Assembly: GCA_051294905.1 (NCBI GenBank)
Contig: CM119373.1
Span: forward strand, 2,916,001-2,980,000
DNA from: Botryllus schlosseri
Lineage: Eukaryota
DNA: 64,000 nucleotides
Direction: 5' to 3'
Positions 8,293 through 58,287 of this stretch are shown piece by piece; the first letter of the stretch is position 1, and each line of letters begins with the position of its first letter. Below the pieces are notes generated by a model. It had not been told where the DNA came from. It did not search any database and saw only the letters and a list, made by a program, of their open reading frames with translations. Made by a program: the position numbers and the translations under genes.

Positions 8293-8687
8293 TATGTGAT
8301 TGCAGTGTGTTTATGGTCTATCAACCGTCAGTCCAGTCTCCAGAGTTAGGTTGTCCAGAGTGAAGAAAAGAACTTGACGCGCATGAAGCTGGACTAAAGA
8401 AGGTGATTCACCGCCAATCCGTCATCATTGCGACAAATATCAACAAGTTAATACAACATGTATTTGCTGGACGTAAATTCAAATATATGTTCCTTCTAAA
8501 TTTCATTTATTTACATTGTGCAATAAACCTTGTGCAATAAACCTTCTGCCGAGTAAGAAACAATAAGTTCCTTTAGGCCAACAGTGGTAATTTTAGTGTT
8601 GGAAATCAAACATTGAAGCATTTTCACAAATAAGTGAACTCCAATTGTCATACCGGTAAATTCAACCGTACTGAAGAGTCTCATCAC

Positions 8688-9714: not shown

Positions 9715-9999
9715 CTCATCACCCACTGTTAATTCTGGTCCCGCTTATGTCTGTGTAATGAATATTTAATGATTTTGCGCAATCCGTAAAATGACGAATA
9801 TCACGGTATGAACACATCCAACTTCGATGTTAAACACAATTCAAACATTTTCACCCGCTACCGACGGTTGAATCTAATCTGCTGCACAGCGCTCTCTCGC
9901 GAGTCGAGCTGCCGAATTGCTTGCATATCTTGTTACTTTTGATGAATGAGTATTATTATTAATTCAAGGCATTTCAATGGCGCTTATAGCCTTTTTTAG

Positions 10000-10341
10000 G
10001 CCTTGTGCACCACGGCATGGATATTGTACAGTTCAATGACATTGTCTTTTCCAGTATCTTCGACTTTTTCTATTTGCATCGTTCTTCGATTGCTTCGTAA
10101 TTGTTCACTTTTCGTTTCACTCTTCACACTTCATCGCACTCTCCCATGCATTCAACTTCGGGTCTCGGATGCCGACTTTTTGCAGCGTGGCTTACTGTGT
10201 TTCTGGGCTTTTTCAAGACGCTGTTAGTACAGCGGGATCAGCGATGAGGAGCCCAGATAAACCTCCGACACATAGAAACTAGCCCGAACAAGGGTTCGAG
10301 AACCAATCACCATTGGTGTCGCAGCGCAGGCGATTTACACA
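10000..10341 (-). mobile_element. tRNA-derived SINE
   Basis: A/B-box-like head plus core TGTGTCGGAGGTTTATCTGGGCTCCTCATCGC, shared with 23975-24293 and 26815-27168. Confidence 0.65.
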
Positions 10342-11454
10342 CTGCGCCACTCGCATCCCCCAAATGAATGAGTAACATACGGATTGTTGAGATACCGTGT
10401 TTTTGTGGTTACCCGTCGGAGTTCATCCATTGATATACGAAAAAAGTACAGATATTATGGAATGAAACTTAATTTTGATGGTTGTACAATGAACAGTGTG
10501 GTAATTCGACCCATGATTAACACAGCCGAGTCTACGGAACTCAGCAGTGTTGTGGAACAGGCAAATTGCACTATTTTGAAATTAAGCAGCACACAGTATC
10601 TGTGGTATGGCAATGCTATTTGCAAAGACTTAACCTGCGGTTCCTTCTCATCTAAAATAGGGATATTGCAAAGGTTCGGAAAGTAACACGTTCAGTAACA
10701 GCGGTTTTGATGATGGCCAGGTTCGTGTTTGTACATTACCTTTCAGCAGGTACGTATGTAGGCCTACACAATGATTCGGGTACTCGGAGCTGAATCGGAA
10801 AACAGTTCTGATGATTCGTGTCGAGTGGTGGGAAATAATATTTTCGAGTACTGAAATTATACGATACTTGTTCAATTTTTATCGAGATTTATAGTTTTGA
10901 TGCTATTCTGCACTTGAGAACTCTGTAAAATTCGATTGGTCGTACTACAGAATACGAAACATGCGGCACAACGCTATCCACGTTGGTGCAGATGAAATGT
11001 GAAGTCGAGATCGATCCGCTACATTGTCGCATCGTGCAATGAAGCAGGTCTTTATATCGTCTAAAATACCAAATTATCTTCATCTAGTGTCGAACTGGCA
11101 TTATAATATTTGTGTCGCATGAAAGGCACATATTTCATATCCTATGCATACTGATGTGTTACGATATTGAGCGTGATACACCTCAGAATCGAATCCCTCA
11201 GCTATACTCGATTTCGTCCAGCCCTAGTCGTAGGTATCTCCTCAATGTGACATATAACAGATACAGTGTTGCATCATTTCATCTGTCGCCCGAGGCCCGA
11301 TGACTCCAGCAAAACGCAAAATATATATTGTGACCAATCGCAATGGACCATACGTAGACTCGACATCGGTGTGAAAATAGCAAGTTCCATTGAAGCGACT
11401 ATCGAGGCGTGTAAATTAGCTAGTGTCGATACAGTGAGTGTCAACATAGCGAGG

Positions 11455-11526
11455 TATTCAAATTAAGTCAGTGATTTTTATCAAATTAAGGCAGTGATTT
11501 TTATCAAATTAAGGTAGTGATTTTTA
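11455..11526. repeat. ~24-bp minisatellite x3
   Basis: caaattaag(t/g)(c/t)agtgattttt repeated. Confidence 0.8.
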
Positions 11527-12671
11527 ATTGTGGTTCATTGAGCCAATCTAGGGTGTCACGCTGGAGGTCAAGACAACCAATCAATTCGTGCATATATGAT
11601 TCATATTAACACGCTTTTCTTAGCAATTGGGCGTGATCAGTCGTATAATTGTGACTGTTATGGTAGTGATCGAGTGCAGTTCGAAATTGAAACCCTGTCC
11701 TTCTGAAATACCTATTATATCTCCAATATTAATTACGTGATTTGCAATTAGGCAATTGATATCACGCTGCTGCGTTGATGAAAGGATAGGAACCACTTAG
11801 CTTGGATTAGGATCGGTTTAGCTCAGTGTTTCTTAACTGTGTCGCCTGCACATCCCAAGGAGCGATTTGGATTTTGAAGGTGGCGGAAACGCTCAGGAGG
11901 CGAAATGGGGGGCACTGGGCCGAGGGTAAAATGGCGTCTCAGCAGAGGGAACAGTAGGGACATAATATTCTATCGTAGAACAACAATTCTATGTATCCCT
12001 CAGTTCTCATTGCAAATTAACTTTCGACAAAATCTGTCAAATCTCGGAAAATATGCCGACAATGTTTGCGGCATTTTTCCACGAATGCAGTGGTTTATTA
12101 TAATTCATGTAAAATTATTTGTGCGTAATTTTAGACCGCCATTTCCCCGTCGAAATACTCTCATCACGCTAGCTCGGTTATTCTTCACAAAATGTATCTA
12201 ACTAGGTATCTTATCCCGCCGCGCACAGCGTGTCGGAATCGAAGAAAGAGTCACTGTGGCACTTTTGAGAGTGAGAGCCCTTTGTACATTAAGGATGTTT
12301 TGAAGCATTTTGGTCAAAATGATTAACTAAATATATGTGTATTTGGGATCTACAAAATTAAATCTTCAGAATATTTCTTCATCGTTCCATAAATGATGAT
12401 ACTATTTACTTTTGCGACCCTCAACCTCACCTGAATGTTACATAATTTGGATTGCTTTGTTTGGAATACATTCATGCTAAAGTTAATAACTGGGTGCAGT
12501 ACTAAATTCAATGTGAGCAAAGCTCTCCACCACTATCTCAGTTGGTTTACTTGTCACATAATGCAATAAAACAAAACCGCCCCCGTATTGCCAGCCGCCG
12601 CGGTGAATTCGGGATGGGTAGACCGGGCCCGAACCAGCTGTTATGAGACCATACGCGATGGCTGTTTTAAA

Positions 12672-14932
12672 CAGGGCTTTGGAGCAGCCGTAAATTTGCA
12701 TTGCTCCAGCTCCGGCTCCGGAGCTTTCTTCTATCATACATTAGCTCCGGCTCCGGCTCCGGCTCCAGCTCCGGAGCCGCATTATTACCACTGCTCCGGC
12801 TCCAGCTCCGGCTCTGAAAACTATCGACGGTGTCTGTATATATCAGGAGTGGGAAACCCACGGCCTATTACGAGCCATATGTGGCCCGCGAGAAGGTTTT
12901 GAGTAGCCCGCGATTAAATTTCCCATTATATTATCGAAATTCTGTTATATTATCGAAATTGCATTGCTGATATTGTGAACTTGCAAGGCCAACCAAAAAT
13001 ATGATTAGTCTGGCCGCGACACTTGGGATGTTGATGACTAAAATATCAGTTCCGACAATTGGCAGATCCAGGGTCCAGTCACATTTTCAGTAAATCGTCG
13101 TATATTACAATAAACTAAATAAGTAGTAACATTTTTCTTCACGCTTCGCGTGTTTAATTGTCACACGATTTCTTTCTTTGTAGTCTAACCCCGCCTGAAA
13201 ATGAAAAAACGCCTGATTTAGCCGATTGAGTCTAACTGTATTCGGAATTACGAGAGAAATTCTTTTCGCGTTTGCGCTCGCAGAAAGATCGTCGACGATG
13301 AAATGTAGGCACAAAAGGATTGTCGTATATTAGCGGAAATCTTCGATATCGACATGTCCAGATGCCGAATAGTCATGTCCTTGCAAACTGAGCCCAGTGG
13401 GCGGTATACAGTCGACCCGCAATATACCCAAGTAATAATAATATTAACTTTGAAAATTTTACGCGCCTGGCGCGGCTATAGGGCAGCGCACTCGTTCGTC
13501 AATTACACGTGGCGCTTTAGCCGAAAAGGTTGACCCTCTGGTCTATATATATTACTAATTTACCCGTAGGTTGGTTATCTTTAGTAATCTAGAGTCTGTC
13601 AGCCGTCGGTAACATCGGATGCAGAAACGCAGAAATAGGTGCCGCCTTGTGACGACATAATGAATACTGGTCAATTGTCGATAACATCATAGTTGCAAAC
13701 GCACTTTACTCCGTGCCATTGCTGTGTACAGCATCACAATTTTGATGCGGCGTTTTAACACTGGCACTGTACTCGTTAACAGTAAGCCATACAGCTCAAT
13801 TCAATCTTTAAATGTGCGATTATTATTCAACTGAAACTGTAGTAAGAGCAATATGGGCGGATATAACGACGTGATCAATAGAAATTCGATTTGTACCAAA
13901 TGGCCAATGGTTTGACGTTCGATATTGGTGCAATCGTTACTAGTTCATCCGGTGTCGATCAAGTTTATCGGAATATAATATTTTCCAGTTGAAATGAATC
14001 GAATATTCGAATTAAACACTGTGCCATGAACATTGCGCCATGCCCATAACGAATTGAATTATTGCACATATACAAGTCCCAGTTCGCGATAATCCGGGAA
14101 TACTGGAGTATCAAGCAGACATCAAGAATGAATTTACGAAATAGATGATTAGAAATTGGAAATTGCGTATCAAATCAGTAATTTGTCTCCAACATAAAAT
14201 ACCATGGGGTTTTGGGCTACTCTTCTGCCATCCCCTATTTACGCTCGAAAATCCTTACTGGAGTGAATGGCGATGTAGCGCAGTAATGAATTCCAATTAG
14301 CATGCAAAATTGCATACTCAATCACACTGTCCAATTTCGCGGCCCGATTAAAGAACTATCACGAAAGAACGACTATTTGCTCATCCGATTCATAGCAACC
14401 ATGAGCTGGAATTTCTCGGCTCGCGCTCGTCATATCGACATGTGCAACGAAATCACGTTTTTATCCTCTCTCCAATTTCGCGTAATACATGTGATCATTA
14501 TTTTGGAACCGTGTATGCAATTGGCCAACAATGTTGTGCTGATGATGCAATTGCGGGAATGCCGAATAGCCACAATATTCACATGCATATTTCGCATACC
14601 TAGGTTCGGCACTCATGTATGAAAATGGAAAATTGAACATATGACTGCTCTGCTGTTGAATCCCCAGGAACATGGTTAGTCGGAAAAGGTAGCGGCAAAG
14701 AGGAAAAGATTCTTAATTTCGCGAAGGCCTGCTGTTGAATTATGTGAACTCAGCAGATATGGTTGTGGCATATATAATAGCATCTTATAAAATACGTCGG
14801 AGCCGGAGCTACCCCTCAAATAACTGGCTCCAGCTCCGGCTCCGGCTGAATTTTATGTAGAGCTCCGGCTCCGGCTCCAGCTCCGGTAAAAATGCACGGC
14901 TCCGGGGCTCCGGCTCCGGCTACAAAGCCCTG
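12672..14932. mobile_element. hAT-like element with (GCTCCG)n subterminal repeats; nested MITE at 12844-13540
   Basis: CAGGGCTTTG...CAAAGCCCTG TIRs; perfect TSD GTTTTAAA; possibly itself nested in 11824-15135 (CAGTG.TTCTTAAC ends). Confidence 0.85.
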
Positions 14933-15755
14933 GTTTTAAAGACCTTGATTTGATCCCGAATATAGCACATGCAATTATTACAGCGTTAATTAGTCGAGTA
15001 GTCCACGGGCACGAATCAAGCTATTTCAAAGAGTGGACTTCGAACGCCTACCGTCTGCTTTTACCAATGTCCTTTTAATATATGGGAAGGGCGCCAGACC
15101 TAGGCACTGCATTAAAAATAGGTTAAGAACCACTGATTTACTGGTATTGCGGATAGTTAGAGTGCGCGTGTGTAAGGTTTGGACTAGCTGTAATTGTTTT
15201 TGAATGACTCACTATCATGACAATCGCTATTTCGAATTTCTATTCTGACACTTGCTGCTCTGACGGATGCAATTCTGAACGCGAGGTAGATGCATGATAG
15301 ATAGTCTGACTTTATTGATTCTCATTCCATGCGTTGCGTCTGAGCCTACATTTCATCGACCTGCAATCTGTCTTTATTGGTGACTCTTTTTCCTTGTTCT
15401 CTTTATGTAACCTTTAGATATGCAGTAGCCTACATTTGATAGGCACAAATAAATCCACCGAATTCTGTATTGGTTTACAAATATGGACTCATCATATCAT
15501 AGTCATCTTGATTAATTCAAAAATTAAAGTTTTTTAATGTCTGAAATCTACCATGTCATGGTAATGAAGAAATACTTACATATAACAACATTCAAATTCA
15601 CAAATATATCAGAAAAAGTACATATATCAAAATTGTGTTCGTACAGCCTACTATATGTTGAGACGTTGTAGAAAGAGCATATTCAGCTCTGCTCTTACAT
15701 ATATTGTTAACCGTTCACACTGGAATTGATGTCAATAATTTATTTTAGATACTAC

Positions 15756-15960
15756 TAGGGATGGTGTGAACGTGAGTTTCACGTTCGCGTTTTGTGTGTG
15801 AACCTCCGAAATTTAGAGGTTCACGTTCACAAATGAACCTTGGTAGGTTCTGCGCTGTGAACCTTTTGCATATATTACAATTTTCACTTCGTTATAAAGT
15901 ATTTGTATGAAATGTATTGCATTTCAACGCGTGCGGTCACTCTATGCATGGCGCTGGCTG
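15756..15960. mobile_element. Left end of a TAGGGATGGTGTGAAC hAT-like element
   Basis: Homologous to 56166-56365. Confidence 0.65.
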
Positions 15961-16299
15961 TAGCCGCTAAGTAGCGTACATAGTGCAAACAAATAAGATC
16001 TACTCGAGCAGTCAAAATGAATGAATTTCGATCATACTAGAGGTAAGAAAATAACAGCCTGGCCATATGGAATTCGTAAAACCGTTTTCTCGCGGATTTT
16101 CATATTTCGCCCGGGCCGCAAGATGGCGCTATGAATATCTATTCCTCTCTTCTCTTTTCGCAACCTTTTGCAAATCGATCACCGCGAGAGGGCGCTAGAA
16201 AATTTGAGTCAATACAGTCATACGTCGGTGCGACGTCACACTCACATAAAAGAAAGTTTACTTTTGAAGTGTGACGTCACAGATCCGCAAAAGTCAAGT

Positions 16300-16603
16300 T
16301 CACAATCTTTTCCGGAACTTCATCTCCGAGAAGCGGAGGAGGTTGTAGGTATCACCCCACCAAATCCCCTTGACGCCTGTTTTGCGGAAGTTTCCATTCA
16401 GATTGCTCTCGGCGCAGTTCTTGTACCACCAGCCTCCTTCGCGAAAAGAAGCGCAATTCAATGACGGATGAGAATCGTGATCCGCGTCCTTCGTTGAGAA
16501 TTGTTGATTGTTGTGATATGAGAGACCATCGTAGGTTGCATTCCCGGAGAATCCGGATACGTTCAGTCTGTAGTTGTCGGATCCGGGGCCGATGCCGAAG
16601 GAG
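16300..16603 (-). CDS. Gene A last exon, FReD C-terminal (P) subdomain
   Basis: AG acceptor at 16604-16605; SFGIGPGSDNYRL...FSTKDADHD...GGWWYKNCAESNLNG...FSEMKFRKRL*. Confidence 0.92.
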
Positions 16604-19600
16604 CTGAAAATGAGAACCGCTGAGTGAATTTCGAATGATTCCAAAATGTTAAAATCCTTGCCTTGTTTTTCGCTCGAATAGTTTGTATTTCAGCCTGCAT
16701 GCGTAATATCATAAGTCTATAAGGATTATATTACGGATCATTGGGGTTCTTTCCTAGCAATAATTTTATTCGCCAACCATTATATTGGCAAATATACGGT
16801 GAATACAGGTATTAAACGCTAAAACAGTGACCCTAACGATGATAGAAGTTGGCATATCTCTATGCTCCTGTTGATTTTGTCGCAATCTGGCGTTATAGCC
16901 CTGCGTGTGCGTTGTGAGAAATACAAGATTGATGAAATGCACCGAAATGATAATGCCAACGACTCATATTCACCTGTATTTAGCAACCCAATAAACCTCT
17001 TTTTTCGTGATCATTTTGATTTTCATCTCCATATCCCCTGTCTTGGTCAATTGATGCAATGCTTCCACGCCTGAAAGAAAGTAGAGCGCCAGATGATTAC
17101 AAACTTACATACGTACGAGTTCTTGACGTGGGCGCAGTGACAAGATGATGAAACAAATTCTCCAGTAGTGTTCACTATAAACGCGCTCACACTGTCAATT
17201 TACTTTACCATAGATCTGCTAGATCACGACCAATGGATATGACACCTCTTCGCTCCTCGTGATGTGTGTCTGGGCGCACTTCATGAGATAATACAAAAGT
17301 TGTATATGAAAAGTCGTACCCAACCAATGATCTCCTTGCAAATCGCCGAATCCTTTCACGTAATAATTCCAACCTCTGTCGAAATCAACGTCTCCGTTCA
17401 TTCTTCGCTGGAAAACCTTTCATGAAAATGGAAAGGATTTAATTTTTTCTGCAACAATCGCGCATTCAACTCACGGTCCAGTTTCCTCCATCGTCAGTTA
17501 CGTCACAGAATACATTCGTGGTTCCGACTTCCGGTATGTCTAATTTAAACACACCCCCAGAGTCATTACGTGCTAATGCTGATTGGGCGTCCTCACAACT
17601 TCTCACAAGACCTAGAAATAATAGAATTCGTTTCATAATCGTCAATCGACGAATGACGTCAATCATTCCAGCCTTGTTAATGTCAGATTGGCGGCAGTGA
17701 ACAGCGTGATACTTGTCAAGTTATTGTTAGTGCATTCATTAATTTATGCATATTAACGAAACATGGGATAGGCTCAACCCATCTATTTTCTCTGTCTGCA
17801 ATATCTGTGACTGAATTTACAATCATGGATGTTCGTTACAACGGTTGGCATTTCAACTGTTCAGCCAAATACTGTGTCTTGTAATAATTTCTGATTAAAA
17901 TTTGTGATACTCATTTCAGTTAATCTACGAATTATTTTGGTGCTATATTTAGACTTTATTTTACGAGGGAGAGTTGGAGACTGAAGCCAGATATGCTCAA
18001 ATATCAGTATAAGTCTGATGGTGAATTGACAAGAATGCAGCGTTGGCGAAGGCAGCAGTTCATAAAATATCATCCTCTATAAGCATTGCTTCAATCTGCA
18101 ACGACAATGTCCATGATTAGCCGATTACCACTGCTAAAGATATCTGGCTGACAGTGCATCGCACGAGCTCGGAGGGCCCAAAATTATCTCGTGAATTAAC
18201 ATAAATTATAGAGTATTTTTTTTGGAAATTTAGGCCACTTTTTCAAAAATTTTCGCGCTGAATGCGCTATTGAATATTGCCGAATATATTGATTATTGGG
18301 TACGCATCCCCAACGAAAATACCTAGATTTTATAGAAATGGAGACTTCGATGTCGGACATTACTGTGTCTCGACGCACCAAGACATATGAAGTTATAGGC
18401 CATGTAACATGCGACTCCGAGAAGTGTGCCAGAACAATCAAGAGCGAGAAGAGCTTGACCGAGACGTAATGCCTTTGTGCAGACCGAAAACTTCGAGATA
18501 TATACAATATACTTATATGTTGTCCATAGGCGGCTGAATGGCTGGCGTCGAATATTCATGTCCTGACGATCTGAACCCCACAGGACAAAAAATGGCATCC
18601 CGCAGGGGAAAATTATTTGCCAGTAAAGCAACACCAATTTGAAATCGTGTGTGCCTTTTGGTTTTGGCGATTTCCATATCTTTTGACATAACAGATATAG
18701 GCGGTCACGAAATAGCATAATGTAACGAATTCAATATACCAACGGGTCCGCCGGAAGATCCTTAATACTTATTTAGTTAGGGGTCTTACCTTATCCAACA
18801 CACCTCACTCAGCTCTACCGTTAAATCAGATTACGTTAACAAAGATGGGATAAAAAATTGAGAGCAAAATATATGCAATTCCAGATCATATCGACCTATT
18901 CAAACATGAATTATATAAAAGTTTCGCGCTACGCTCGTTTAGTCGACATAAGGCGACGCAATAAACAGTAGACCCGATGTAGCTGATAAGTAGCGGGGGA
19001 AGGCGTACAGGCTCAGGAGGGCTGAGATGGTTCCGGGGGCTTTATTTGGTTTATCACCCTGTGGGGGGGGCAAGACCAAGCTTTTTTGGGGGGGAGGATA
19101 ACGTAGTGCTTTCAAGGTCTTGGTGGGGAATGAAGGCTCGGAATAAATCTGAAGTGGGGAATGAAGACAAAAAGGTTGGAAACCACTGGTGTAGATGGTA
19201 CGACGCAAATATGACATTTAAAATAGAAACATAATTAGGATTATGATTATTGCCATTGTTGACACTTGGAAGTTTCAGCACAGATTAAACTCATACCGAG
19301 TTCAAGAAACATTATTTCTGTCAGGTGGTTTCATGCCTCCCCTCAGATGCCTCGTCGCCCGGTAACCCCAAAATCAGACTCGAATTTTGCATTTTGCAGT
19401 TTGTCATCGCGACGCAACAATGTCGTCTGCTCAGGAGAAAGTGATCAGCTGCGACGAGAGTGAGAGTAATCAATGGGCAGCGCGAAAACGAGCAATGCTC
19501 CTGTGTATCGTCACAGATATACATTGCGATATTAATGACGGATGTCCATAATTTCTTCTAGTCTACTTTTAGTCTAACAACGTAAGCAATTTAGTTCATA

Positions 19601-21883
19601 CCGATTACTTGGTGACTTAAAATTGACTCGAAAATTTTGCTTCGAGTCACGAGTCAATCCACATTTCTGAAACGCCAAGTCAAGACACGTCAAGTCATGA
19701 CTCGATCCGTACCAACACTAATTCACGGTAATTTATGGATAGAGAGGAAGCGATTTATCAAACCTACTCAAGTTAGACTCAGTCAAGTATTGTGGCAGTC
19801 AGCGACTCATCTCCTTCGCATAGCTCAAAATCTAGAAGCAATATAGCCTATACTTACGGCTGCAATTTTTGCCATAATATCCTTCGGCGCAGTTACACGA
19901 ATAGTACGGAGGAGTGAGCTTACTAAGACATGTTCCGTTATGTTGACAGACATTCGGATGGTGTTCGCAGTAATTTTCTAGATGGAAACGAAGCGATGTG
20001 CCAAACCTTCTGAATTTATACACAGCCAAGTGTTGTGGCTAGGGTTGCATTTTATATTGATTTTTGTTTTAAATGCAACTCTAGTTATGGCAGTAAGAGA
20101 CTTATTTCCTGAGCATTGTTCAAAAATTAGAAGCGATATACTTACTGCTGTATAGTTTTTTCCATAGTATACGTCGGTGCAATTACACGTATAGTACGGT
20201 TGAGTGTCATTCTTTAGGCATGTTCCGTTGTGTTGACAGACATTCCGGATGTGTTCACAGTAATTTTTTATATAGAAACGAAGCGATGTGTCGATCATAC
20301 TGAATTCATACGCCACCAAGTGCTATGGCAGTGAGTGAATATACTTCTTGGCATAGCTCAAGAATTAGAAACGATATATTCATCTCTGCAGTTTTTTTCC
20401 ATAATATCCATCGGTGCAATTACACGAATGTGTAATGAATGACAGACATTATTCAGACATGCTCCGTTATGTTGATAGACATTCGGATGGTGTTCACAGT
20501 AATTATATAGAAAATATATAGAAATGTAATGTAAAACTGGCATTGTATTTTTTGTGGTCACAGAAATTACATATTTGATTTTTTCCATTCCACATCGTTC
20601 ATACTGTCTTTACGTGCTAATGATGAATACTCCAATGTTAGACTCGTCTCGAAGCCCAATTCCCGAATCAGATTCGTCCCTGATTGGAAGCAATATACTT
20701 ACGGCTGCAGTTTTTTCCATAATTTCCGTCGGTGCAATCACACGTATAGTACGGATGGGTGTCATTATTCAGACATGCCCCTCCATGTTGGCAGGCATTC
20801 GGATGGTGTTCACAATATCCCTCTGCGTGGAAAGGAAGCGATAACTGTTTCAAACCTACTCACGCTGTAGACACAACAAAGTATTGTGGGAACGAGCTTG
20901 TCTTCGTCTGGACATCACATACATCAGAGGTTCTCCACCGGGGGTCCGTGGACCCCTATGGGTCAGTGAAGCATTTTCAGGGGGTCCGCGAAGCCTCAAA
21001 ATTTATAAAATGGCTGATAACCTACTTGGTATTTTTTATTTAGAGAAAACACAAGGCCGTCTCGCTTCATAACTGCTAAAACTTCATGACTCACATAAAC
21101 AGAATGGCCGTCGGAGATGTAATATCCTACCATGCAAACACATGTGAATTGCTAAATTGTCAATAGCCAACTGATACAAACGTATGGTTGTTAGGTTCAG
21201 CGATGTTTTAGAAACTAATTGTTTGCAAAATTCATATTCTCATGTGATAGGCATAACCACCAACTTCCAGATGAGCTGCTAGATAAAAGTGACTCTACTG
21301 GATGTTAAGTTCACTAAAAACTGTTCCTCACTTTTGGCGTCACATATCTAGCGATCATGCCCAAAGGAGGTGTCGAAAGCGTTACGCTTTATGATTACAA
21401 TAGCAACCGCCTCTCTTTGCGGAAATGGATTTTCGGCACTCGTTCATATCGGATAGACGGCGCGGATTTTAAAGACCCGAGCGCGTACTTCAAGACATTT
21501 AGCTACATACTTCGCTTTGAACTAATAAAATTATTCCTAATTTCTACATACAGAGGAGGCTATGATGTTATTTTGTTGCTGTTTATCACCAGCCTATAGT
21601 TGATATTTGCACAGGACAGATGCCGGTTGCTCGATAATGGATCTAAATTTGAACTAAAACTTTGGGGGTCCGCGGGGGTCCGTGAGGGTCCAGAAGGGGT
21701 CCGCGAAGACAAAAAGGTTGAGAACCACTGACATAGATCAATAATTAGAAACGATATACTTACGGCTACAGTTTCTTCCATAATATCCGTCGGTGCAATT
21801 GCACGTATAGTAGGGTTTGGTGTCATTATTCAGACATGTTCCGTTATGTTGACAGGGATGCTGATGATAATTGCAGTAGTCGC
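16300..21883 (-). CDS. Gene A: multi-exon EGF-repeat + fibrinogen C-terminal domain (FReD) protein; 5' leader unresolved
   Basis: Exons 21764-21883, 20703-20822, 19858-19977 (EGF) and 17475-17611, 17320-17416, 16974-17070, 16300-16603 (FReD) have GT-AG boundaries and join in frame. FReD motifs: VFCD..GGNWTVFQRR, GFGD..GDHWLG, FSTKDADHD, GGWWY, SNLNG, SEMK. Confidence 0.9.
16974..17070 (-). CDS. Gene A FReD exon 3
   Basis: 97 bp, phase 1-2, (G)VEALHQLTKTGDMEMKIKMITKKEVYWVAKY, AG/GTGAAT boundaries. Confidence 0.88.
17320..17416 (-). CDS. Gene A FReD exon 2
   Basis: 97 bp, phase 0-1, VFQRRMNGDVDFDRGWNYYVKGFGDLQGDHWLG; 58-bp intron upstream. Confidence 0.9.
17475..17611 (-). CDS. Gene A FReD exon 1
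   Basis: 137 bp, phase 1-0, LVRSCEDAQ...SGGVFKL...VFCDVTDDGGNWT, donor GTGAGT. Confidence 0.9.
19858..19977 (-). CDS. Gene A EGF-like exon
   Basis: 120 bp, phase 1-1, NYCEHHPNVCQHNGTCLSKLTPPYYSCNCAEGYYGKNCS, six Cys, TAG/GTAAGT. Confidence 0.88.
20146..20267 (-). pseudogene. Decayed EGF pseudo-exon (gene A)
   Basis: EGF homology, but the acceptor AG reads AA and a 2-bp insertion removes the 6th Cys (GKNYTAV). Confidence 0.75.
20384..20506 (-). pseudogene. Decayed EGF pseudo-exon (gene A)
   Basis: EGF homology with 2nd Cys changed to Tyr, an internal frameshift and donor GT changed to AT. Confidence 0.75.
20703..20822 (-). CDS. Gene A EGF-like exon
   Basis: 120 bp, phase 1-1, GYCEHHPNACQHGGACLNNDTHPYYTCDCTDGNYGKNCS, CAG/GTAAGT. 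Confidence 0.88.
20925..21730. mobile_element. hAT MITE in an EGF intron of gene A
   Basis: CAG(A/T)GGTTCTC TIRs, GGGGTCCGCG subterminal repeats, TSD ACATACAT/ACATAGAT; same family as 36094-37242. Confidence 0.85.
21764..21883 (-). CDS. Gene A EGF-like exon
   Basis: 120 bp, phase 1-1, DYCNYHQHPCQHNGTCLNNDTKPYYTCNCTDGYYGRNCS, CAG/GTAAGT. Confidence 0.88.
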
Positions 21884-23974
21884 CTGTATTGACAAGTAGC
21901 GACATCATTTTATTGTTCTTGGTGTTAGGTTGATGCAGCGAATTTGTTGGATTCTGACTACATCATTTCTCATCGACAATGATAAACGTAACAAGAGCAA
22001 TCACCGGCAATCCTACGGATTCACTGGTTCACTTTCATGTATACTTGAATAGTACTGTTACTTTCTATTTTTCAAAAACGTGCCTTAAATATTACAGCGA
22101 TTCAGAAAGTACCTATTTTGAATGCTGTATACGCCTTGCGGGATGGGTTTATGATTTAGCTTATAGTCTGATGTTAAGCTCTAGTGAGCTACGACCAGAC
22201 ACTACAATATGTATATGCTAACTATTCACATGAATATTTCTGACAAGTTTATTCAATACCAATTCGCGCCTCGTGCGATGTTCTTATTGCTGTTCGCGAT
22301 TGGTAATTATAGAGCGGTATCTAATTTATTAATAATCCATATCATCTTTGCCAATCATGATATGATGGTTCTTGCAAATATAGTCGAAATCATATGCTTA
22401 CTCCGCGTTTACTCTTGGCCCGCAATATTTTTAACGATGACAATAAGTCACGACTGCATTGTAACGGGGTAAAAACTAGTGACGTCACAAGATCACAGTC
22501 AAATTTCGAGGGATATGTCCCATAGCTACACCCTTGTATATAACTCATACACAATACGCACTAGGTTTCTGTTTGGATTGAACACGTGTCTGTTGCGAAT
22601 AATTGCGACGGTACATCGTATTTTGGTCGGGTTGTTGATTAGAATTTATCATATTAAAAACAAATATTACAATTCCCTGTTTTATGGTGGAATTTATATC
22701 ATCCAATATGTAATTAGATCATATATTTCATTTCCAATTATCCACTGTCTCAATCTACTAGTCCTAATTTACATGAGCCCACATTTACTGGATATCCTAC
22801 TCTGCCGCATTGCACATTACATATGGCCCTGGTAAAACATGTTTCCTGTTACATTGGTTCTTATCTATTGTATGATTGAATTCTAACACTTTGCTGCTAA
22901 ACGTGGAGTTAAATTCATTCACGAGCGTCACCACACCGACGTCATGCGTTCTATATTTCAAATTCAGACCATAACATTTACCGAGGCTCGTTCATGATCA
23001 AATTCATCGTAAAAGCTTGATGAATAATTAACTCAGTTAAATATGTAGTATAGACCGACGTTTTATCGTCGTAGGGGTAAAGTATAAACCAAGTTGAAAT
23101 GCTTTACTTTTGAGTTGAATTGGAAACGGAGTTTACGGTGATCGACCTATCGATTTCTATAGATTGTTAGTTGCTTGACGATTACTTTATCCAATTTATC
23201 GCAATATCACCTTGTAGAGTAGCTTCAACTCGTTCTCTTTCAGCCAGCTTTTCCAGGTCACTCATAATCGTTTCAAGAGATGTTCCGTCCTTCAAAACGT
23301 ACAATCTTATTTACCTTTCTCGTGAAATCCACCTTATGTGATAATTCACATACATGAAGGCCTGAACAATATTTATGACATGGAATATGAAGGAAATGAC
23401 GAATGTTTTCATTCGTATTTGCTTCTTAGCAGGTGGGTTTACCGATTGCTCGTGCACCTTTATTATGAATTCATGACTAAGTATCCGCGGGTGGAAGAAT
23501 TCACGCGAAATAATTTAGTTGGCTGTTGATTGCGTATCGCACAACACTTCTAGCTGCTTTGTTGGTATCCACCTAATTTCATTTGAATACGCCATATTCA
23601 ACTGGCTTACCTCACAATTTCCATGAGAGATCCATCGTCCATTGATGTAATTTCTACTGCAAAATTGGCCTGCAATAAACGGAAATATTCGGTTCAGCGA
23701 TGGTGTTTTTCAATCGACAGTATGCTGTGAAGCTCGGTATGTGACTTCTAGGCTATCAAAAGAGTGGGGCTATAACATTATTGGGACTCTTTATGAATTG
23801 TTTTGCCAAGTTACCTTTTATCCGGCTATGAACACGTACATCAGTGTACAATGTGTACATCCTTACAAATTTAACTTACAAACCACATATATAACCAACC
23901 AGCAGTGGATTATAACATCGCAGCTTTGTCAAATATCTAACAACATATTGTACGAAAACGATATAGACTTGACT

Positions 23975-31442: not shown

Positions 31443-31589
31443 TCTTTTATTCACCTAATACGTTTGTTCTCCATTTATTGGCCCTTAATGCTGAAACAGC
31501 GAGGCTTCTTTCTCAAGCAATATAGAACTTCTGAGACGCGGCACATTATTTATAATTGGGGCAGCATTTGCTTCAATGCCACTGACGGT

Positions 31590-49599: not shown

Positions 49600-49668
49600 T
49601 CACAATCTTTTCCGCCGGAACTTCATCTCCGAGAATCGCAGGAGGTTGGGAGGTTGATTCCAATCCCA
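49600..49668 (-). CDS. Gene B terminal FReD segment (WDWNQPPNLLRFSEMKFRRKRL*), coding only if the 485-nt insertion is spliced out
   Basis: Homologous to the gene A C-terminus; preceded by AAG in phase 0. Confidence 0.55.
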   Translation of the reverse strand, partial: WDWNQPPNLLRFSEMKFRRKRL

Positions 49669-52600
49669 CTTTAACGAACTATATTGTTCACGCCATTTTA
49701 ATATTTGAGCAATAGGGAGTGTTGTGAACTTACTTAATTCCCTGAAGTGAAAACCCGATAAGACCTTTGTTATTCGTGTGAATATAGATAAGAGCAATAA
49801 ATCGTACGATGTTTTGTGCATATATTCTCTCGTGGCTATAATTTATATACGCATGTAATACCACGTAGACAGTCATTCGGTTCATGATATTTCGCTGATT
49901 CGGAAGTCCGTTGTATTGCCGTACGTGATTCAATAAAGTTACAAGTCGTGGAGACGGAAACAAAATATATTCGTCAGTGTGATCCATCGAATACGTGTGC
50001 AATAGACAGGCTTCGTGGTACGTCAGCCAACAAGGCCGTACGGCGCGGTTACGCCGGTCCGTCAAAGGAAGAAACACGCAGCGAATTGTAAACGCAACCT
50101 TCTTGGAGTCAGATATACAATTATACAACTACAACATTCGCTCTGCGTTATACCCACCACCAAATTCCCTTGCCGTCTGTTTTGCGGAAGTTTCCATTCA
50201 GATTGCTCCAGCCACAGTCCTCATACCACCAGCCTCCTTCGCGAAAAGAAGCGCAATTCAATGACGAATGAGAATCGTGATCCGCGTCCTTCGTTGAGAA
50301 TTGTTGATTGTTGTTCCATGTGAGACCGTCGTTGGTTGCATTCCCGGAATATCCGGATACGTGCAGTCTGTACTTGTCGGATCCGGGTCCGATGCTGAAG
50401 GAGCTGGAAAATGAGAACCGCTGAGTGAATTTCGAATGATTCCAAAATGTTAAAATCCTGGCCTTGTTTTTCGCTCGAATAGTTTGTATTTCAGCCTGCA
50501 TGCGTAATATCAATAAGGATTATACTTCGGATCATTGGGGTTCTATCCTAGCAATACTTTTATTCGCCAACCATGAAATTGGCAAAAATACCGTGATTTA
50601 CCGGTTGTATACAGGTATTGTTACTAAAACAGTGGCCCCAATGACGATATAAGTAGGCATATCTCTATGCTCCCGTTGATTTAGTCGCAATCTGGCGTTA
50701 TAGCCTTGCGTGTGCGTTGTGAGAAATACAAGATTGATGAAATGCACCGAAATGATAATGCCAACGACTCAGATTCACCTGTATTTAGCATCCCAATAAA
50801 CCTCTTTTTTCGTGATCATTTTGATTTTCATCTCCATATCCCCTGTCTTGGTCAATTGATGCAATGCTTCCAGGCCTGGAAGAAAGTAGATTGCCAGATG
50901 ATTACAAACTAACATACGTGCAGGAGCCCTTGACGTGGGCGCAGTGACAAGATGATGAAACAAATACTCCAGCAGTGTACACTCTAAACGCGCTCACACT
51001 CCCAATTTACTTTACCATAGATCTGCTAGATCAGAGGTCTCAAACACGCAGCTCGCGGGCCGCATTTTGTCCGGCCCGAGACGACATTCTAGATTTTTAT
51101 TAATTTGACAATATATAAGGGTCACATGTATCTTTTCAGGTTATAAAGTGAAAATTCTCTCTACAATTGCTCTGAAAGCCTGACACTATTCATCAAACGT
51201 CACTATCACATCAATTGCAAACGCTCCCATGTAGTGGAAGATTGATTATTTCGTCACATTTTCACTTCATGTTGATAAAACCTGTTCCTTAGACGATTCG
51301 TGACTAAAATTTGTGAGTTGGACTTGGACGTGACCTTTCCTAAAATTACTCGGACTCGGGCTGACTCGATGGAAAAATGAAAAAGACCCGATTGGACTCG
51401 GAGTGACTCGGAATGCCGTGAACTTGCTAGAACCACGGACGCAACAAACTAATCGCGTGTCATGAGAATAGTAGATCAGACGGTCACAGCTTGGTATTTC
51501 GCTAACTAAGCGAGTCGTTATTGCAACCAGTGGCAATCTGTTAGTTACATCTTGGGTCGCTTAGTCCTCGAACCATGTTATTAAGGCCACTTCAAGGTAC
51601 CGAGTACCGTAGTGATACGCTCCAACGATGGGCCGTTCGGCGTTCCGACATTTCTATTACTAGGACACATCCATTAATATATTTTTTATATTTAAATATT
51701 TTTCCGCTCCTATTTTCGAAGAAATTTGACCATGAGATTAATAATAACCACTTATCAGGAGTATAGGCAACCTAGGCTACCCGAGTCCTGGATTGGAACT
51801 ACACTGCCCAACCCAAAAATGTTGTGATCTCAGATCAGTCTCTATTATCAATCTGTTAAATTCGAAATATCAAAGGCGATAGCTTTTTTGATGACATCAT
51901 ACATTTGTCCGCTCATATGTGTCTATATCTTATAATTATTATATATAACGAGTACAACAAGAATCCTATTCAATTAGTTATAAATGTGATAATTTTTTCG
52001 TGCCAGGCCTAAATTGATACAAGAGTAAATCACATTTTGACGATGTGTGTTTACTCGCAGCCTGCTGGATCGGCTCACTTTCAATAGGACAATTCCATCC
52101 CGTCAAATATGGTCTGAAAGACATATAATACCCCTACAGATGCTGCGGCCCGCGGCGTCGTCAAAACTGGAAAACTGGCCCGCGAGCACATTTGAGTTTA
52201 AGACCTCTGTGCTAGATCACGATCAGTGGATATGGCATCTCTTCGCTCCTCGTGATGTATGTCTGGGCGCACTTCATGAGATAATGGAAAAGTTATATAT
52301 GAAAAGTCGTACCCAACCAATGATCTCCTTGAATATCGCCGAATCTTTTCACGTAATCATTCCAATCTCTGTCGAAATCAACGTCTCCGTTCATTCTTCG
52401 CTGGAAAACCTTTCATGAAAATGGAAATAATAATCAATTTTTTTCTGCAACAATCGCGCAGTGAACTCACGGTCCAGTTTCCACCATCGTCAGTCACGTC
52501 ACAGAATACACTCGTGATTCCGACTTCCGGTATGTCTAATTTAAACACACCCCCAGAGTCATTACGTGCTAATGCTGATTGGGCGTCCTCACAACTTCTC

Positions 52601-55600
52601 ACAAGACCTAGAAATAATAGAATTCGTATCATAATCGTCAATCGACGAATGACGTCAATCTTTCCAGCTTTGAAATGTCAGATTGGCGGCAGTGAACAGC
52701 GTGATACTTGTCAAGTTACTAGTGCTCTGAACGTGATGCGTATACTACCGGTACGTTGATATTTTAATGCTTAACCGCGTAAGAATGTGGGTACCCCTCA
52801 CCGAATCTTGACGTGTTGTGGTTATGGCTTGACATCATTTGTTAGTGCACTCATTAATGTATGTATATTAACGAAACATGAGATATGCTCAACCCATCTA
52901 TTTTCTCTGTTTGCAATATCTGTGACTGAATTTACAATCATGGATGTTCCTTACAACGGATTGCAATTCAACTGCTCAGCCAAATACTGTATCTTGTAAT
53001 AATTTCTGATTAAAATTCGTGATACTCATTTCAGTTAATCTACGACAGAGGTCTCAAACTCAAATGTGCTCGCGGGCCAATTTTCCAGTTTTGACGACGC
53101 CGCGGGCCGCAGCTTCAACAGAAGTATTCCATGTCTTTCAAAGTAGGCCGTATTTGACGGGATGAAATTGTCGTATTGAAAGTGAGCCAATCCAACAGAC
53201 TGACATTCAACACTCATCATAAAAATGGGATTTACTGTTGTATGAATTTAGGTCTGGCATAGAAAAATTATCACATTTATAACTATTTGAATGGAAGTTT
53301 TGTTGTATTTGATATATAATTATTATAAGATATAGACGCCATGTGAGCGGACAATTATATAATGTTATCGTAAAAGCTATCACGTTATAATTTTGCAGCG
53401 AATATGAATATTTTGAATTTAACAGATTGATAATAGAGATTGATCTGCTATCACAGCATTTGGGGTTTGGCAGTGTAGCCCAATCCGGGATTCGGATATA
53501 CTCCTGATAAGCTCATGGTCAAATACCTTCGAATATTGGAGCAGAAAAACAACAATACAAATCTATTAATGAATGTGTCATAAATATCGGAAGGCGGATC
53601 AACATCGTTACATCGTTGGAGCGTACCACTACGGTATACTCGGTACCTTTAAGTGGCATTAATAACATGGTTTAGCGACCCAAGATGTAACTAACAGATT
53701 GCCAATGGTTGCCATAACTACTTGCTTAGTTAGCGAAATGCCAAGCTGCGACCTTCTGATCTATTACTATCCCATGACACGTGAATAGTTTGTTGCGTCC
53801 ATGGTTCTAACCAATTCACAGATTTCCGAGTCCATCCGAGTCCACTCCGGTCATTTTCATTTGGCCATCGAGTCAGCCCGAGTCTGAGTAATTCTAATAA
53901 AGGTCGCGTCAATGTCTAACTCAAAAATTTCAGTCACGAATCGTCCAAGCATAGTGCTGTAAACGACTATCGTCTAAGCCTAAGGGTTGGGGTTTATCAT
54001 CATGAATTGGAAATGTTGCGAAATAGGGAATCTCTCCTGCATGGTCGCGGATAGCGAAGTTAGATGAATAGTTTTAGGCTATCGAAGCAGTTTAAGAGGA
54101 AATTTTCCCTTTACAACTTGAAAAGAGATATGAGGCACTTATATGTTGTAAAATTATTGAAATTCTGAAATGTCGCGGGCCGCATGAAATGCTCTGGCGG
54201 GCCGCGTGTTTGAGACCTGTGATCTACGAGTTATATCGTTGTTATATTTAGCCTTTATTTTACGACGGAGAGTTGGAGACTGAACCCAGATATGCTCAAA
54301 TAACAGTCTAAGTCTGATGGTGAATTGAAAAGAATGCAGCGTTGGCGAAGGCAGCAGTTCATAAAATATCGTCCTCCAAGCATTTCTTCAATCTGCTTTG
54401 ACAACGTCCATGATCAGTCGATTATCACTGCTAAAGATATCTGGCTGACAGTACATCGCACGATTATGAGGCCAGTGGAATTACCCAGATATCAGAGACC
54501 AAGCCAAGCCTTAAACGTGGGTTTTATCATTCACAATTGGGCTCTGAATGAAGTTAGCGTCCCACACAGTGAGCTGGCTGCTGATGGTAGCTCCGCGTTG
54601 CCTTGACCCTATTCTTCCCGCCAAGGCACAGACTTGTTGGATAAACCACATTTTGTCTGCATTTCAATTCAAGAACAGGAATAGTTGTATGAAACTTGTC
54701 CCGGAGAGAACATCTCTCTGTATCTCGGCTGGAATCAATGGGTCGTTTTATGCATTTTATATGACTGTCTGTCTGTATTTTACCGGTATTTTGAATGTAT
54801 GCTCGTGGTGGATTTTATTATAGCTAACGCGATAATGAAAATATATTGTCAAATTGTGATGTCTTGCAACATAAGGTTGATATATCTGCCAGAAAGCAAC
54901 AAAGATTCAGGTAGCGATAGGGTTACTAGCGGTTGTAAGCTGCAGTAGCGAGAGGGTTAATGAACGGCAACTGAAGGGTTAATGAGTCTGCAGCTGAAGT
55001 GCAAAAAGTGTATCTTTTGAAGCATCATTTCGACATCGAATGCGCAAAATACGCCGGCAGATCGCTTACCATTTTGTTGACTCGGTAGTACGGCTAAGTG
55101 TAAGTAAACTGACATTTTTCATTATGATGACAGGTATTTGGGTGGCGTTCACAGTAATTTACTGTATGGAACAAATGATCTGTCAAACTTACTGAATCTA
55201 TACACAGCCAAGTATTGTTGGAATTGAGCGTGTCTTATTCTCGTCATAGCTCAATATTCACAAGAAATATGGGCTACGTCGATGCAATCGCACGTATAGT
55301 ACGGACGATTGTCATTATTCATGCATTTACCTCCATATCGACATGTATTCTGGTGGTGTGCACAATATCTCTCTGTGTGGCAGTGAGTGAGTCATTTTCT
55401 GACCATAGCTCAAGAATTAGGATCGTTTTACTTACCACTGCAGTTTTTCCCGTAGTATCCGCCGGTGCAATTACACGTATAGTACGGACGAGTGACATTA
55501 TTCAGACATTTACCTCCATGTTGACAGGGATTCTCGTGGTGTGCACAATATTGTTCTGAACGGAAACAAAGCGATAACTGGGCCATACGTACTGAATTTA

Positions 55601-57761
55601 TACACGGCAGGTAGAGGGACATGGCATTGAGCGAGTCTTATTCTGACCATAGCTTAATAATTAGAAGCGTGTTACGCTTACCAGTGCAGTTCTTTCCATA
55701 ATATCCGTCGGTGCAATTGCACGTATAGTACGGACGGGTGACATTATTCAGACATTGTCCTCCATGTTGACAGGGATTCTGGTGGTGTGCACAATATTGT
55801 TCTGTGTGGAAACGAAGCGATTACTGTGCCATAAATACTGAATTTAGGCACGGCCAAGTGTAAGGCAGTGAGCGAGTCTCATTCTGGTCATATTTTAAGA
55901 ATTAGGATCGATTTACTTACCACTGCAGTTTTTTCCATAATATCCGTCAGTGCAATTGCACGTGAAGTACGGACGAGTGACATTATTCAGACATTTTCCT
56001 TCGTGTTGGCAGGGATTCTGGTGGTGTTCACAATATCTCTCTGTATGCAAACGACGCGTATACGTACTGAATTTGGACACGGTCAAGTGTCGTGGCAATA
56101 ACCAAGTCTTATTCTGGCCATAGCTTAAGAATTAGAAGCATTATACTTAACAGTGGAGTGTTTTATAGGGATGTTGTGAACGTGAGGCTCACATTCGCGT
56201 TCTGTATGTGAACCTCAGAATTTTAGAGGTTCACGTTCAGAAACGAATCTCGGTAGGTTCTGCACTGTGAACCTTTTTCATACATTACAATTTTCACTTC
56301 ATTTTAACATCTTTGGTTGAAATTTATTGCATTTCAACTGCGGGCCACTCTATGCATGGCGCTGACAGTAAAAAAAATCAACACTAAATGAGCATGCACC
56401 TTGACAATCTCAAAAATTTTGCTTGCTTTGTTAGAAGAGTTTGCTCGAAATATCCAGCTTTCCGTATGTGAATATTTAGCGACTCTCTGCTTTGAGCTTG
56501 AACCGCACAACATCACGAGCGAAATACACTACTAGTAGACGTAGTCAGCGAATGATGCTATTCAGCCTATCAATGAAATTGATATCGTTGACTGATGAAA
56601 CAAATCTAACAGGCGTACGAGGTCAATAGCGGTTGCAAAAATAGAAAGCCGTTTTACACTCTGCTCAATACCAACGAGCAATACTCCTACGCCGAATACA
56701 TTGTCCGGTCTGGCCTGGACCGTTAAAACGTAAGCTTATATTCCCTTACAAGTCCTCGTCGAAATTGTTGACAAAGCGACGGAAGATTTTGATTTAATGG
56801 GATTGTTATATCATTTGATTGCCCGAGTTGATACATTCGGCTACGTTCAAAACGTCAATATGTATTTCAGCATTGTGGTATTATGTTACCCGAGCCGTCG
56901 CTAGGTATCATGACCAATTTTACATTAATATAAGCTAGGGTTACCATACGTCCTCTTTTAAGAGGATTTGTCCTCTTCTTTGACTTTTTTGAAAGTGTCC
57001 TCGGAGGACGTCCTTTTCTCCTCTTTTTTGAGATTTTGTCCTCTTTTCTAAAATCTAGGTCAGATTTAGAGCAAATTGCGAATGATATGCAGTAAAGTAG
57101 CACAGAAGTAACGCAACGGATCACAAAGTGGGTAAAATTTACCGGTTTTTGAGAATTTTTCTCAACGGATCACAAAGTGGGTAAAATTTACCGGTTTTTC
57201 AGAATTCTTCTCCGGTTTTAGCAAGTCTTAAATTCTGGAAAAGTGTCCTCTTTTTAGATTTCCAAAATATGGTAATCCTAATATAGGCTATGACTTCACT
57301 GAAATGTAGTGTTGGAATTAGCAATATGACGTCAGGTGATGTAATGAGGTTCACGTTCGAGTTCACACGAACCTGAGCCTTTCAGAGGTTCACACCGTTC
57401 CTAGCCTTTTCCATAATATCCATCGGTGCAATTGCACGTATAGTAGCCTCCGGACGACTGACAATATTCAGACATTGTCCTCCATGTTGACAGGGATTCT
57501 GGTGTTGTGCACAATATTGTTCTCAACGGAGACAAAGCGAAAACTGGGCCATGCTTACTGAATTCATACACGGCAGGGTGTCGTGGCCGTGAGCGAGTCA
57601 TATTCCGGCCATAGCTTAAGAAACAGAAGCGGTATACTTGCCACTGCAGTTCTTTCCATAATATCCGTCGGTGCAATTGCACGTATAGTACGGTTTAGTG
57701 TCATTATTCAGACATGTTCCGATATGTTGACAGGGATTCGGGTGATAATTGCAGTAGCCGC
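49600..57761 (-). CDS. Gene B: paralogous EGF-repeat + FReD protein; last exon split by an insertion; 5' leader unresolved
   Basis: EGF exons 57642-57761 (GC donor), 55921-56040, 55682-55801, 55436-55555; FReD exons 52471-52607, 52313-52409, 50779-50875, 50154-50403 plus 49600-49668; phases compatible. Confidence 0.85.
49670..50152. mobile_element. Solo-LTR-like insertion in the last exon of gene B
   Basis: 483 bp; ends TTTAACG...CGTTATA (each one change from TGTAACG...CGTTACA); 5-bp TSD CCCAC; internal AATAAA; absent in gene A. Confidence 0.65.
50154..50403 (-). CDS. Gene B FReD exon 4 (P subdomain)
   Basis: SFSIGPGSDKYRL...GGWWYEDCGWSNLNGNFRKTDGKGIWWW; runs to a stop at 50148 if unspliced. 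Confidence 0.88.
50779..50875 (-). CDS. Gene B FReD exon 3
   Basis: 97 bp, (G)LEALHQLTKTGDMEMKIKMITKKEVYWDAKY. Confidence 0.88.
51032..52209. mobile_element. hAT MITE in a gene B intron
   Basis: CAGAGGTCT TIRs; perfect TSD TGCTAGAT; empty site in gene A at 17217-17224. Confidence 0.92.
52313..52409 (-). CDS. Gene B FReD exon 2
   Basis: 97 bp, VFQRRMNGDVDFDRDWNDYVKRFGDIQGDHWLG. Confidence 0.9.
52471..52607 (-). CDS. Gene B FReD exon 1
   Basis: 137 bp, LVRSCEDAQ...VFCDVTDDGGNWT. Confidence 0.9.
53046..54221. mobile_element. hAT MITE of the same family, inverted relative to 51032-52209
   Basis: TSD ATCTACGA; empty site in gene A at 17923-17930. Confidence 0.92.
55070..55161 (-). pseudogene. 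Decayed EGF pseudo-exon (gene B)
   Basis: NYCERHPNTCHHNEKCQFTYT*PYY: in-frame stop and 3' deletion. Confidence 0.7.
55270..55372 (-). pseudogene. Truncated EGF pseudo-exon (gene B)
   Basis: RYCAHHQNTCRYGGKCMNNDNRPYYTCDCID; the GYYGKNC end and the donor are deleted. Confidence 0.7.
55436..55555 (-). CDS. Gene B EGF-like exon
   Basis: 120 bp, phase 1-1, QYCAHHENPCQHGGKCLNNVTRPYYTCNCTGGYYGKNCS. Confidence 0.88.
55682..55801 (-). CDS. Gene B EGF-like exon
   Basis: 120 bp, phase 1-1, QYCAHHQNPCQHGGQCLNNVTRPYYTCNCTDGYYGKNCT, CAG/GTAAGC. Confidence 0.88.
55921..56040 (-). CDS. Gene B EGF-like exon
   Basis: 120 bp, phase 1-1, RYCEHHQNPCQHEGKCLNNVTRPYFTCNCTDGYYGKNCS. Confidence 0.88.
56166..57403. 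mobile_element. hAT-like element inserted into an EGF exon; nested MITE at 56936-57280
   Basis: TAGGGATGTTGTGAAC...GTTCACACCGTTCCTA ends; nested TAGGGTTACCATA element with TSD ATATAAGC/ATATAGGC. Confidence 0.8.
57404..57521 (-). pseudogene. EGF pseudo-exon (gene B) broken by a frameshift and a transposon
   Basis: 5-bp insertion GAGGC after RP; the 3' end is displaced to ~56150-56165 by element 56166-57403. Confidence 0.75.
57642..57761 (-). CDS. Gene B first EGF-like exon (GC donor)
   Basis: 120 bp, GYCNYHPNPCQHIGTCLNNDTKPYYTCNCTDGYYGKNCS; donor GCAAGT. Confidence 0.8.
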
Positions 57762-58287
57762 CTGTATTGAAACGCAGCGAGATCATGTTAAAGTTCCTGG
57801 TGTGAGGCAGCGACTTTGTTGGATTCCGACTATAGCGTTTCGCATCAACAATGATAAACGTAACAGGGACAATCACCGGAAATCCTATACGGATTCACCG
57901 GTTCACTTTCATGTATACTTGAATAGTACTGTTACTTTCTATTTTCCAAAAATGTGCCTTAAATAATACAGCGATTCAGAAAGTCCCTATTTTGAATGCT
58001 GTATACGCCTTGCGGGATGGGTTTATGATTTAGCTTATATTCTGATGCTAAGCTCTTGTGAACCACGACCAGACACTACAAGATGTATATGCTAACTATT
58101 CACATGAATATTTCTGAGAAGTTTATTCAATAACAATAAAATATTTCGCGCCTCGTGCGATGTTCTTATTGCTCCTGTTGGCGATTGGCAATTATAGAGC
58201 GGTATCTAATTTATTAATAATCCATATCATCTCAATCACCAATCATGATATTATGGTTTTTGCAAATAGTCGAAATCATATGCTTAC

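Follow-up and report, generated by a model that had tools for sequence, protein, structure and literature searches.

Neighbouring fibrinogen-related genes in Botryllus schlosseri with differing residues at the predicted S1 pocket on a near-constant framework

Two neighbouring genes of Botryllus schlosseri, here called A and B, encode fibrinogen-related domain (FReD) proteins that differ from each other at most positions equivalent to the S1 ligand pocket of FIBCD1. It is fairly probable that they represent a diversifying FReD recognition repertoire, in which the framework is near-constant, the loops of the S1 pocket have been diversified by selection, and the copies bind different non-self targets. 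The case for this reading comes from where the differences fall and from the other members of the family, and not from the overall divergence of the two copies, which is ordinary.

Both genes lie on the minus strand of the window, the whole 64,000-nucleotide stretch of contig CM119373.1 that was analysed (GC 40.3%), to which all positions refer. Each consists of a phase-compatible array of EGF exons followed by four FReD exons (Table 1), at 17611-16300 in A and 52607-49600 in B. That A and B are FReD proteins follows from the match to PF00147 and from the fibrinogen C-terminal fold. The last exon of A matches Pfam Fibrinogen_C (PF00147) with E=1.5e-17 and aligns to FIBCD1 with E=3e-18, L-ficolin chains also being matched. 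Its AlphaFold (AF2) model has a pLDDT of 89.4, with the minimum in the last 20 residues, and superposes on L-ficolin, FIBCD1 and tachylectin-5A with TMq 0.72-0.77 (0.77 for L-ficolin). In gene A all four FReD exons are intact, and the domain is complete including its terminal strand.

Table 1. Positions of the features of genes A and B in the window
Feature	Position	Strand	Remarks
High A/B similarity block	15959..18166	.	2.8-9.1% divergence per block, 12-20% in the far flanks on either side; a recent copy or a homogenised segment
Gene A last FReD exon	16300..16603	-	P subdomain, Ca loop, S1 pocket loops, last strand and stop; holds the main finding
Gene A FReD exon 3	16974..17070	-	AG/GT ends, open frame; no Pfam match by itself
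Gene A FReD exon 2	17320..17416	-	Pfam Fibrinogen_C E=1.9e-7; splice motifs
Gene A FReD exon 1	17475..17611	-	Weak Pfam match, E=0.04
Gene A EGF exon array	19858..21883	-	3 intact six-Cys exons and 2 decayed copies; Pfam EGF for the first
Gene A putative signal-peptide/linker stretch	21884..22038	-	Upstream of the first EGF; putative role
Gene B last exon end	49600..49669	-	3' of the insertion: remainder of the loop, last strand, stop
Dispersed repeat, 483 bp	49670..50152	.	Inside the hypervariable loop of gene B
Gene B last FReD exon, first part	50153..50403	-	Pfam Fibrinogen_C E=1.6e-15; comparison copy of the first-pass annotation
Gene B FReD exon 3	50779..50875	-	Near-private Val>Asp
Gene B FReD exon 2	52313..52409	-	GFG motif altered by Gly>Arg
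Gene B FReD exon 1	52471..52607	-	–
Gene B EGF exon array	55090..57761	-	Frame intact in 4, of which the first has a GC donor; 3 decayed; Pfam EGF for one
Gene B putative signal-peptide/linker stretch	57762..57912	-	Open into the first EGF; putative role

At the 5' side of the FReD exons two arrangements suggest themselves. The EGF-to-FReD splice phases are compatible in both genes, giving a putative joint; the intact EGF exons of A lie at about 21764-21883, 20703-20822 and 19858-19977, and its putative signal/EGF exon reads through a hydrophobic segment into an in-frame stop. There is also an in-frame ATG at about 17636, just before exon 1 of A, which may start a short signal-like leader, and a short hydrophobic leader from an in-frame ATG in this place is present in both A and B as a putative N-terminus. 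The EGF exons arise and decay by tandem duplication, with 3 intact and 2 decayed in A, and 4 and 3, respectively, in B. Unlike in ficolins, there is no collagen-like Gly-X-Y stalk, since no run of four or more GXY triplets occurs in any of the six frames across the whole window. In tenascins, FN3 repeats stand between the EGF and FReD parts; no Pfam match to FN3 was obtained in the 49 of 157 listed ORFs scanned, a scan that short exons would escape.

A first-pass annotation of this DNA had compared 16361-16603 with 50161-50403 by hand, and its counts are exact: 23 of 243 nucleotides differ in a gapless alignment, with 15 amino-acid changes in 81 codons and 5 purely synonymous codons, while the 107 bp of proximal intron carry one substitution and one indel, and 340 bp of 3' flank carry nine substitutions and two indels. 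The conclusion drawn from them, that the exon is more diverged than the surrounding non-coding DNA, holds against these two chosen flanks (Fisher p=4.6e-4) but not in general. Over all aligned non-coding DNA of the gene copies, 183 of 2720 sites differ (6.7%; Fisher against the exon p=0.11), and over its nearer part 93 of 1578 (5.9%; p=0.047). At least 23 substitutions are found in 2 of 11 non-overlapping non-coding segments of 243 nt, and one intron bin (16759-16858), with 14 differences in 99 nt, lies above every bin of the exon. The nine collinear far-flank blocks of the A/B duplication are more diverged than the exon (512/3464 sites, 14.8%; p=0.023). We therefore rejected exon-versus-flank divergence as evidence of selection, because its outcome depends on the flank chosen and the divergence is patchy in a conversion-like manner. 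The A/B contrast alone is ordinary, and the divergence of the whole exon is nothing unusual. Its Nei-Gojobori values (dN 0.094, dS 0.128, dN/dS 0.74) likewise do not bear out an earlier inference of diversifying selection in so far as this implied dN/dS above 1, and pN/pS over the four FReD exons is 0.82. Amino-acid changes are nevertheless concentrated in the last exon (15/81 codons, against 8/107 in exons 1-3; p=0.026).

As the far flanks diverge more, the gene block must be younger than the DNA on either side of it. Divergence inside the block is patchy (Sawyer-like test p=0.005; longest-run test p=0.07), for which gene conversion would be the simplest reading of the alignment. The limited divergence of the block (3-9%) could also be taken to mean that a tandem mis-assembly of two haplotypes produced A and B, their differences being allelic. 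This we regard as extremely improbable: the collinear flanks differ by the 14.8% given above, one unit carries about 15 kb of inserted DNA that the other lacks, the number of EGF exons is not the same, and sequencing reads reveal many family members regardless. A and B are neighbouring copies and likely tandem paralogs. The segmental duplication outside the genes is collinear between 5-15750 and 27254-34052 at 12-20% divergence, and the extra ~15 kb of the gene B unit corresponds to 34052-49258.

In the available text of PMC3908420 and PMC10825690, the S1 residues of FIBCD1 are given as Y405, C414, H415, Y431, A432 and W443, with H382, R412 and N413 forming S1(2) and H396 S1(3). We mapped these positions by hand along the FIBCD1 alignment, leaving out C414, which is invariant, and W443, which lies beyond the aligned 81 codons. 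The earlier suggestion that the changes surround the S1 pocket is borne out: A and B differ at 6 of the 8 remaining S1(1)/S1(2)/S1(3) positions, compared with 9 of the 73 others (p=3.5e-4). The enrichment persists with other choices of the set, namely when C414 is included (p=9e-4), when the gap-dependent match of Y431 is dropped (p=2e-3), or with both alterations (p=5e-3). The six differences are H/N, K/E, N/D, A/G, G/D and V/G.

All changes in the eight S1 codons are nonsynonymous (six, with no synonymous change). Their nonsynonymous rate, 6/19 sites, exceeds that of near non-coding DNA (p=0.001) and the pS of the exon (p=0.019), with only a borderline excess over the far-flank rate (p=0.051). 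In patches delimited post hoc, synonymous sites (4/10) are as diverged as nonsynonymous ones (12/41), which speaks for conversion; in an a-priori segment of S1 positions plus or minus two codons, the excess of synonymous change is no more than slight (3/17 versus 3/34 sites), which speaks against it. The clustering of changes that had been described is only borderline at the nucleotide level within the exon (permutation p=0.07, 0.07, 0.12). One of the three clusters, ending in GIWWWDWNQPP, does not form an unbroken genomic stretch: gene B had been silently joined across its 483-bp insertion. Taken at the S1 codons themselves, these comparisons suggest positive selection at the pocket.

A and B do not retain the canonical acetyl-binding pocket. 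At the equivalents of Y405, H415, Y431 and A432 they read R/R, A/G, G/D and V/G, so that none of these four alignable canonical residues is kept in either gene. The Asp pair of the Ca site (D393/D395) and the cysteines of the C401-C414 disulfide are identical in both. The replacement of the usual His after the Cys by Ala or Gly, which had been taken as a sign of a non-canonical ligand, is indeed found in both genes, but such loss is common rather than rare: among 360 matches to the motif in 313 homologous proteins, His stands in 141 and Ala or Gly in 47.

These patterns could arise without diversifying selection if the pocket were no longer needed, or its surface loops were simply tolerant of change, with purifying selection keeping frame and fold, and conversion tracts together with decay of B producing the patchiness. 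We consider this unlikely, though with a chance that has to be reckoned with. It accords with the ratios below 1 given above for the exon and for all four FReD exons, with the patchiness of divergence, and with an exon that is less diverged than the far flanks. Moreover, the changed positions also vary among 64 distant homologues (entropy 2.87 versus 1.70, p=0.001), and therefore loose constraint does contribute. Against relaxation as a full account, the changes fall specifically on pocket positions, including the H382-equivalent, which is conserved among homologues (entropy 1.11), yet differs between A and B, and codons 31-59 of the same exon contain just one nucleotide difference.

Further evidence on this question comes from other members of the family. 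Four sequencing runs were mapped on gene B (49300-52800) at 80% likeness. At position 50791, a letter other than that of B is found in 43 contigs of one run (X1) and 35 of another (X5), all overlapping this single site; the summed depth there is 71-199x (X1) and 93-113x (X5) that of single contigs, a rough value that includes both haplotypes and gives no copy number. These reads show that A and B come from a large expressed FReD family, likely of dozens of genes. Expression of the family is seen in RNA run X23, in which 2746 reads fall on the gene B stretch and 189 show splicing of exons 2 and 3. Loose ends of its reads (167 and 136 reads), translated by hand, differ in the residues of the Ca/Cys loop and of the first patch.

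A hypervariable loop connects the GIWW motif to the terminal LRFSEM strand, and the W443 equivalent falls inside it. This loop is replaced in 10 of the 12 variants listed (of 109 in total). Hand translation of these ten gave ten different loops, all stop-free and all in frame, with lengths of 4, 6, 6, 7, 7, 8, 10, 11, 14 and 14 residues (for example GYGL, DDPSIL, KWGDDDGRYNL and WWDDDDQGRRSYRL; gene A has GDTYNL). Counting six length classes, the chance of ten in-frame loops out of ten is ~1.4e-3. All ten come from run X5 and may mix alleles and paralogs; as only 12 of 109 variants are listed, and the loop variants are from this run alone, out-of-frame loops may exist beyond them. A range of 4 to 14 residues, in sequences otherwise alike enough to be aligned at 80% or more, is not what relaxed constraint would lead one to expect. 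Protein searches for close family members returned none apart from two Logan singletons, P0170 (65% identical) and P0173 (63%); these differ at the same loops, and several of the residue states of gene B are common to them. A metagenome scan for relatives yielded only 2 loci with a 17-residue match each, of which no use was made.

Gene B requires separate consideration, as its last exon is interrupted within the variable loop by a 483-bp insertion. This is bounded by a 5-bp direct repeat on both sides and has an imperfect terminal inverted repeat. Its summed contig depth of ~1,500-13,000 in run X1, versus 6-16 for listed single contigs, identifies it as a dispersed repeat; the depth falls into two levels, ~1,500-2,200 and 11,000-13,000, and the element is thus probably composite. 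It has no match in Rfam and no second copy within the window. Reading through into the insertion meets a stop after 1 codon and removes the terminal strand, which gene B would possess only if the insertion were spliced out. Two GT-AG choices restore the frame on paper; no joint removing it is present among the 15 of 276 splice joints listed. The insertion itself reads GT...AG on the gene strand, and could in time turn into an intron.

Two substitutions add to this damage. The first Gly of the GFG motif, which 225 of 228 homologue matches share and none replaces by Arg, is Arg in gene B, and at the Val>Asp site of exon 3 all of the 138 RNA reads covering 50791 carry the other letter. Since the unspliced form would lack the last strand and Arg replaces a near-invariant Gly, gene B is probably a pseudogene. 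Part of the change in B may accordingly be decay, given that the gene is damaged, and the insertion, the Gly>Arg change and the private Val>Asp are all what relaxed constraint would predict. However, the pocket states of gene B recur in other members, and not all A/B differences in exon 2 derive from B, which at two of them holds the commoner Asp. A look-up of the gene B stretch among RNA runs listed no run that contains it, and in run X23 just 22 of the 2746 reads are 99% or more alike to gene B, which is therefore at most barely represented there; the animal of that run may lack gene B. A 1.2-kb high-copy element that A lacks is also found twice, in inverted orientation, in the introns of B (51034-52209 and 53038-54239; 75% alike).

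A diversifying recognition repertoire, the reading we prefer, would work as follows. The genes of the family would code for recognition proteins that are secreted and that have a framework held by purifying selection and conversion. Gene conversion would homogenise the framework, introns and 3' flank, while patches of the pocket would stay old or come in from other members, and selection, rather than loose constraint alone, would drive the differences at the pocket. Gene B would then be a pseudogene that still carries pocket residues typical of the family. The role would be immune recognition, with ligands that are not simple N-acetyl groups and that, for different copies, could be non-acetyl or extended. 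One may go further and imagine, in a colonial chordate, a germline repertoire of ~50 FReD receptors, whose CDR3-like loop spans 4-14 residues, together with cassette-like conversion of pocket patches, in which dead copies such as B serve as donors, or in which the repeat in B is a newborn GT-AG intron whose removal leaves an in-frame Trp-rich loop as found in another member; such an elaborate scheme is improbable.

Comparison with known systems places the family among invertebrate FReDs. With FIBCD1, L- and M-ficolin and tachylectin-5A, A and B share the fold, the Asp pair of the Ca site, the disulfide of the P domain and the WWYxxC motif. They differ from all of these in the loss of the Y405, H415, Y431 and A432 equivalents, in a W443 loop that is shortened and variable, and in belonging to a multi-copy family. 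In its workings the family resembles the pattern-recognition FReDs of invertebrates, and it belongs neither with ficolins nor with canonical S1 lectins. Ficolin-like transcripts of Botryllus and Halocynthia, which carry a FReD and have been reported in Botryllus rejection, are classed as ficolin orthologues in the available text of PMC2527998 and PMC5465252; the genes studied here have no collagen domain.

Expanded FReD families with altered pockets are already known from mosquitoes, flies and snails, as described in the parts of the reports available. The FREP/FBN genes of Anopheles (PMC1242226) and Drosophila (PMC2429915) form tandem clusters, in which binding-site residues and loop indels vary and a wider range of ligands has been proposed. 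Like A and B, they combine a shared frame with variable binding-site residues and loops. Unlike them, the members described here are young enough for their DNA to be aligned at 80% or more, even in the introns, show signs of conversion, have one loop of 4-14 residues, and come from what is likely a chordate. Biomphalaria, with 73 FReD genes comprising sFReDs, FREPs and one EGF-bearing FReM (PMC7588048), is similar in the size of its family and in possessing an EGF plus FReD architecture. According to the same source, as far as its available text goes, the FBG domain of the snail FREPs is relatively conserved and their IgSF domains are highly diversified, whereas here it is the FReD pocket that varies, and several exons make up an EGF array that is decaying.

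Among tunicates, v-Themis of Ciona is a polymorphic fibrinogen-like recognition protein (PMC7018956, in the text available). This precedent raises the question of whether the pocket serves recognition of conspecific self and non-self proteins, such as a gamete or allorecognition ligand, rather than of microbial patterns. Loss of the acetyl pocket and long loops rich in Trp and Asp would suit protein partners. However, v-Themis is described there as three multi-allelic loci nested in introns of s-Themis and polymorphic throughout, whereas dozens of copies share a constant framework here, and no polycystin-type Pfam match was obtained in the 49 longer ORFs scanned, which is a weak test. We think a conspecific role very unlikely.

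The freely available literature consulted, supplementary gene lists aside, does not describe a young FReD family from a botryllid whose pocket loop varies in length. While the FReD copies of insects and snails are old, many of those described here are of recent enough origin to permit codon and recombination modelling, and their variation is focused on the three or four loops that surround a pocket of defined structure. This makes the idea that invertebrate FReD expansions widen the range of ligands directly testable, in a likely chordate model. The variation of the pocket loop, from 4 to 14 residues in the translated variants, likely lets different copies bind different targets.

Several minor features lie elsewhere in the window. 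Upstream of gene B, 59315-59414 (-) is an AG/GT-bounded open stretch with neither a counterpart in A nor a Pfam match, and is a possible exon. Short ORFs at 8866-9352 (-), without a Pfam match at 0.01, have a motif which we take to resemble the C-terminus of hAT-type transposases. The ORF at 39132-39590 (+) has a zf-RVT match (E=3.5e-6) and is a retroelement fragment. Finally, 60484-61164 and 62528-63208 form an inverted repeat pair of 682 bp with 94.7% identity, separated by ~1.4 kb.
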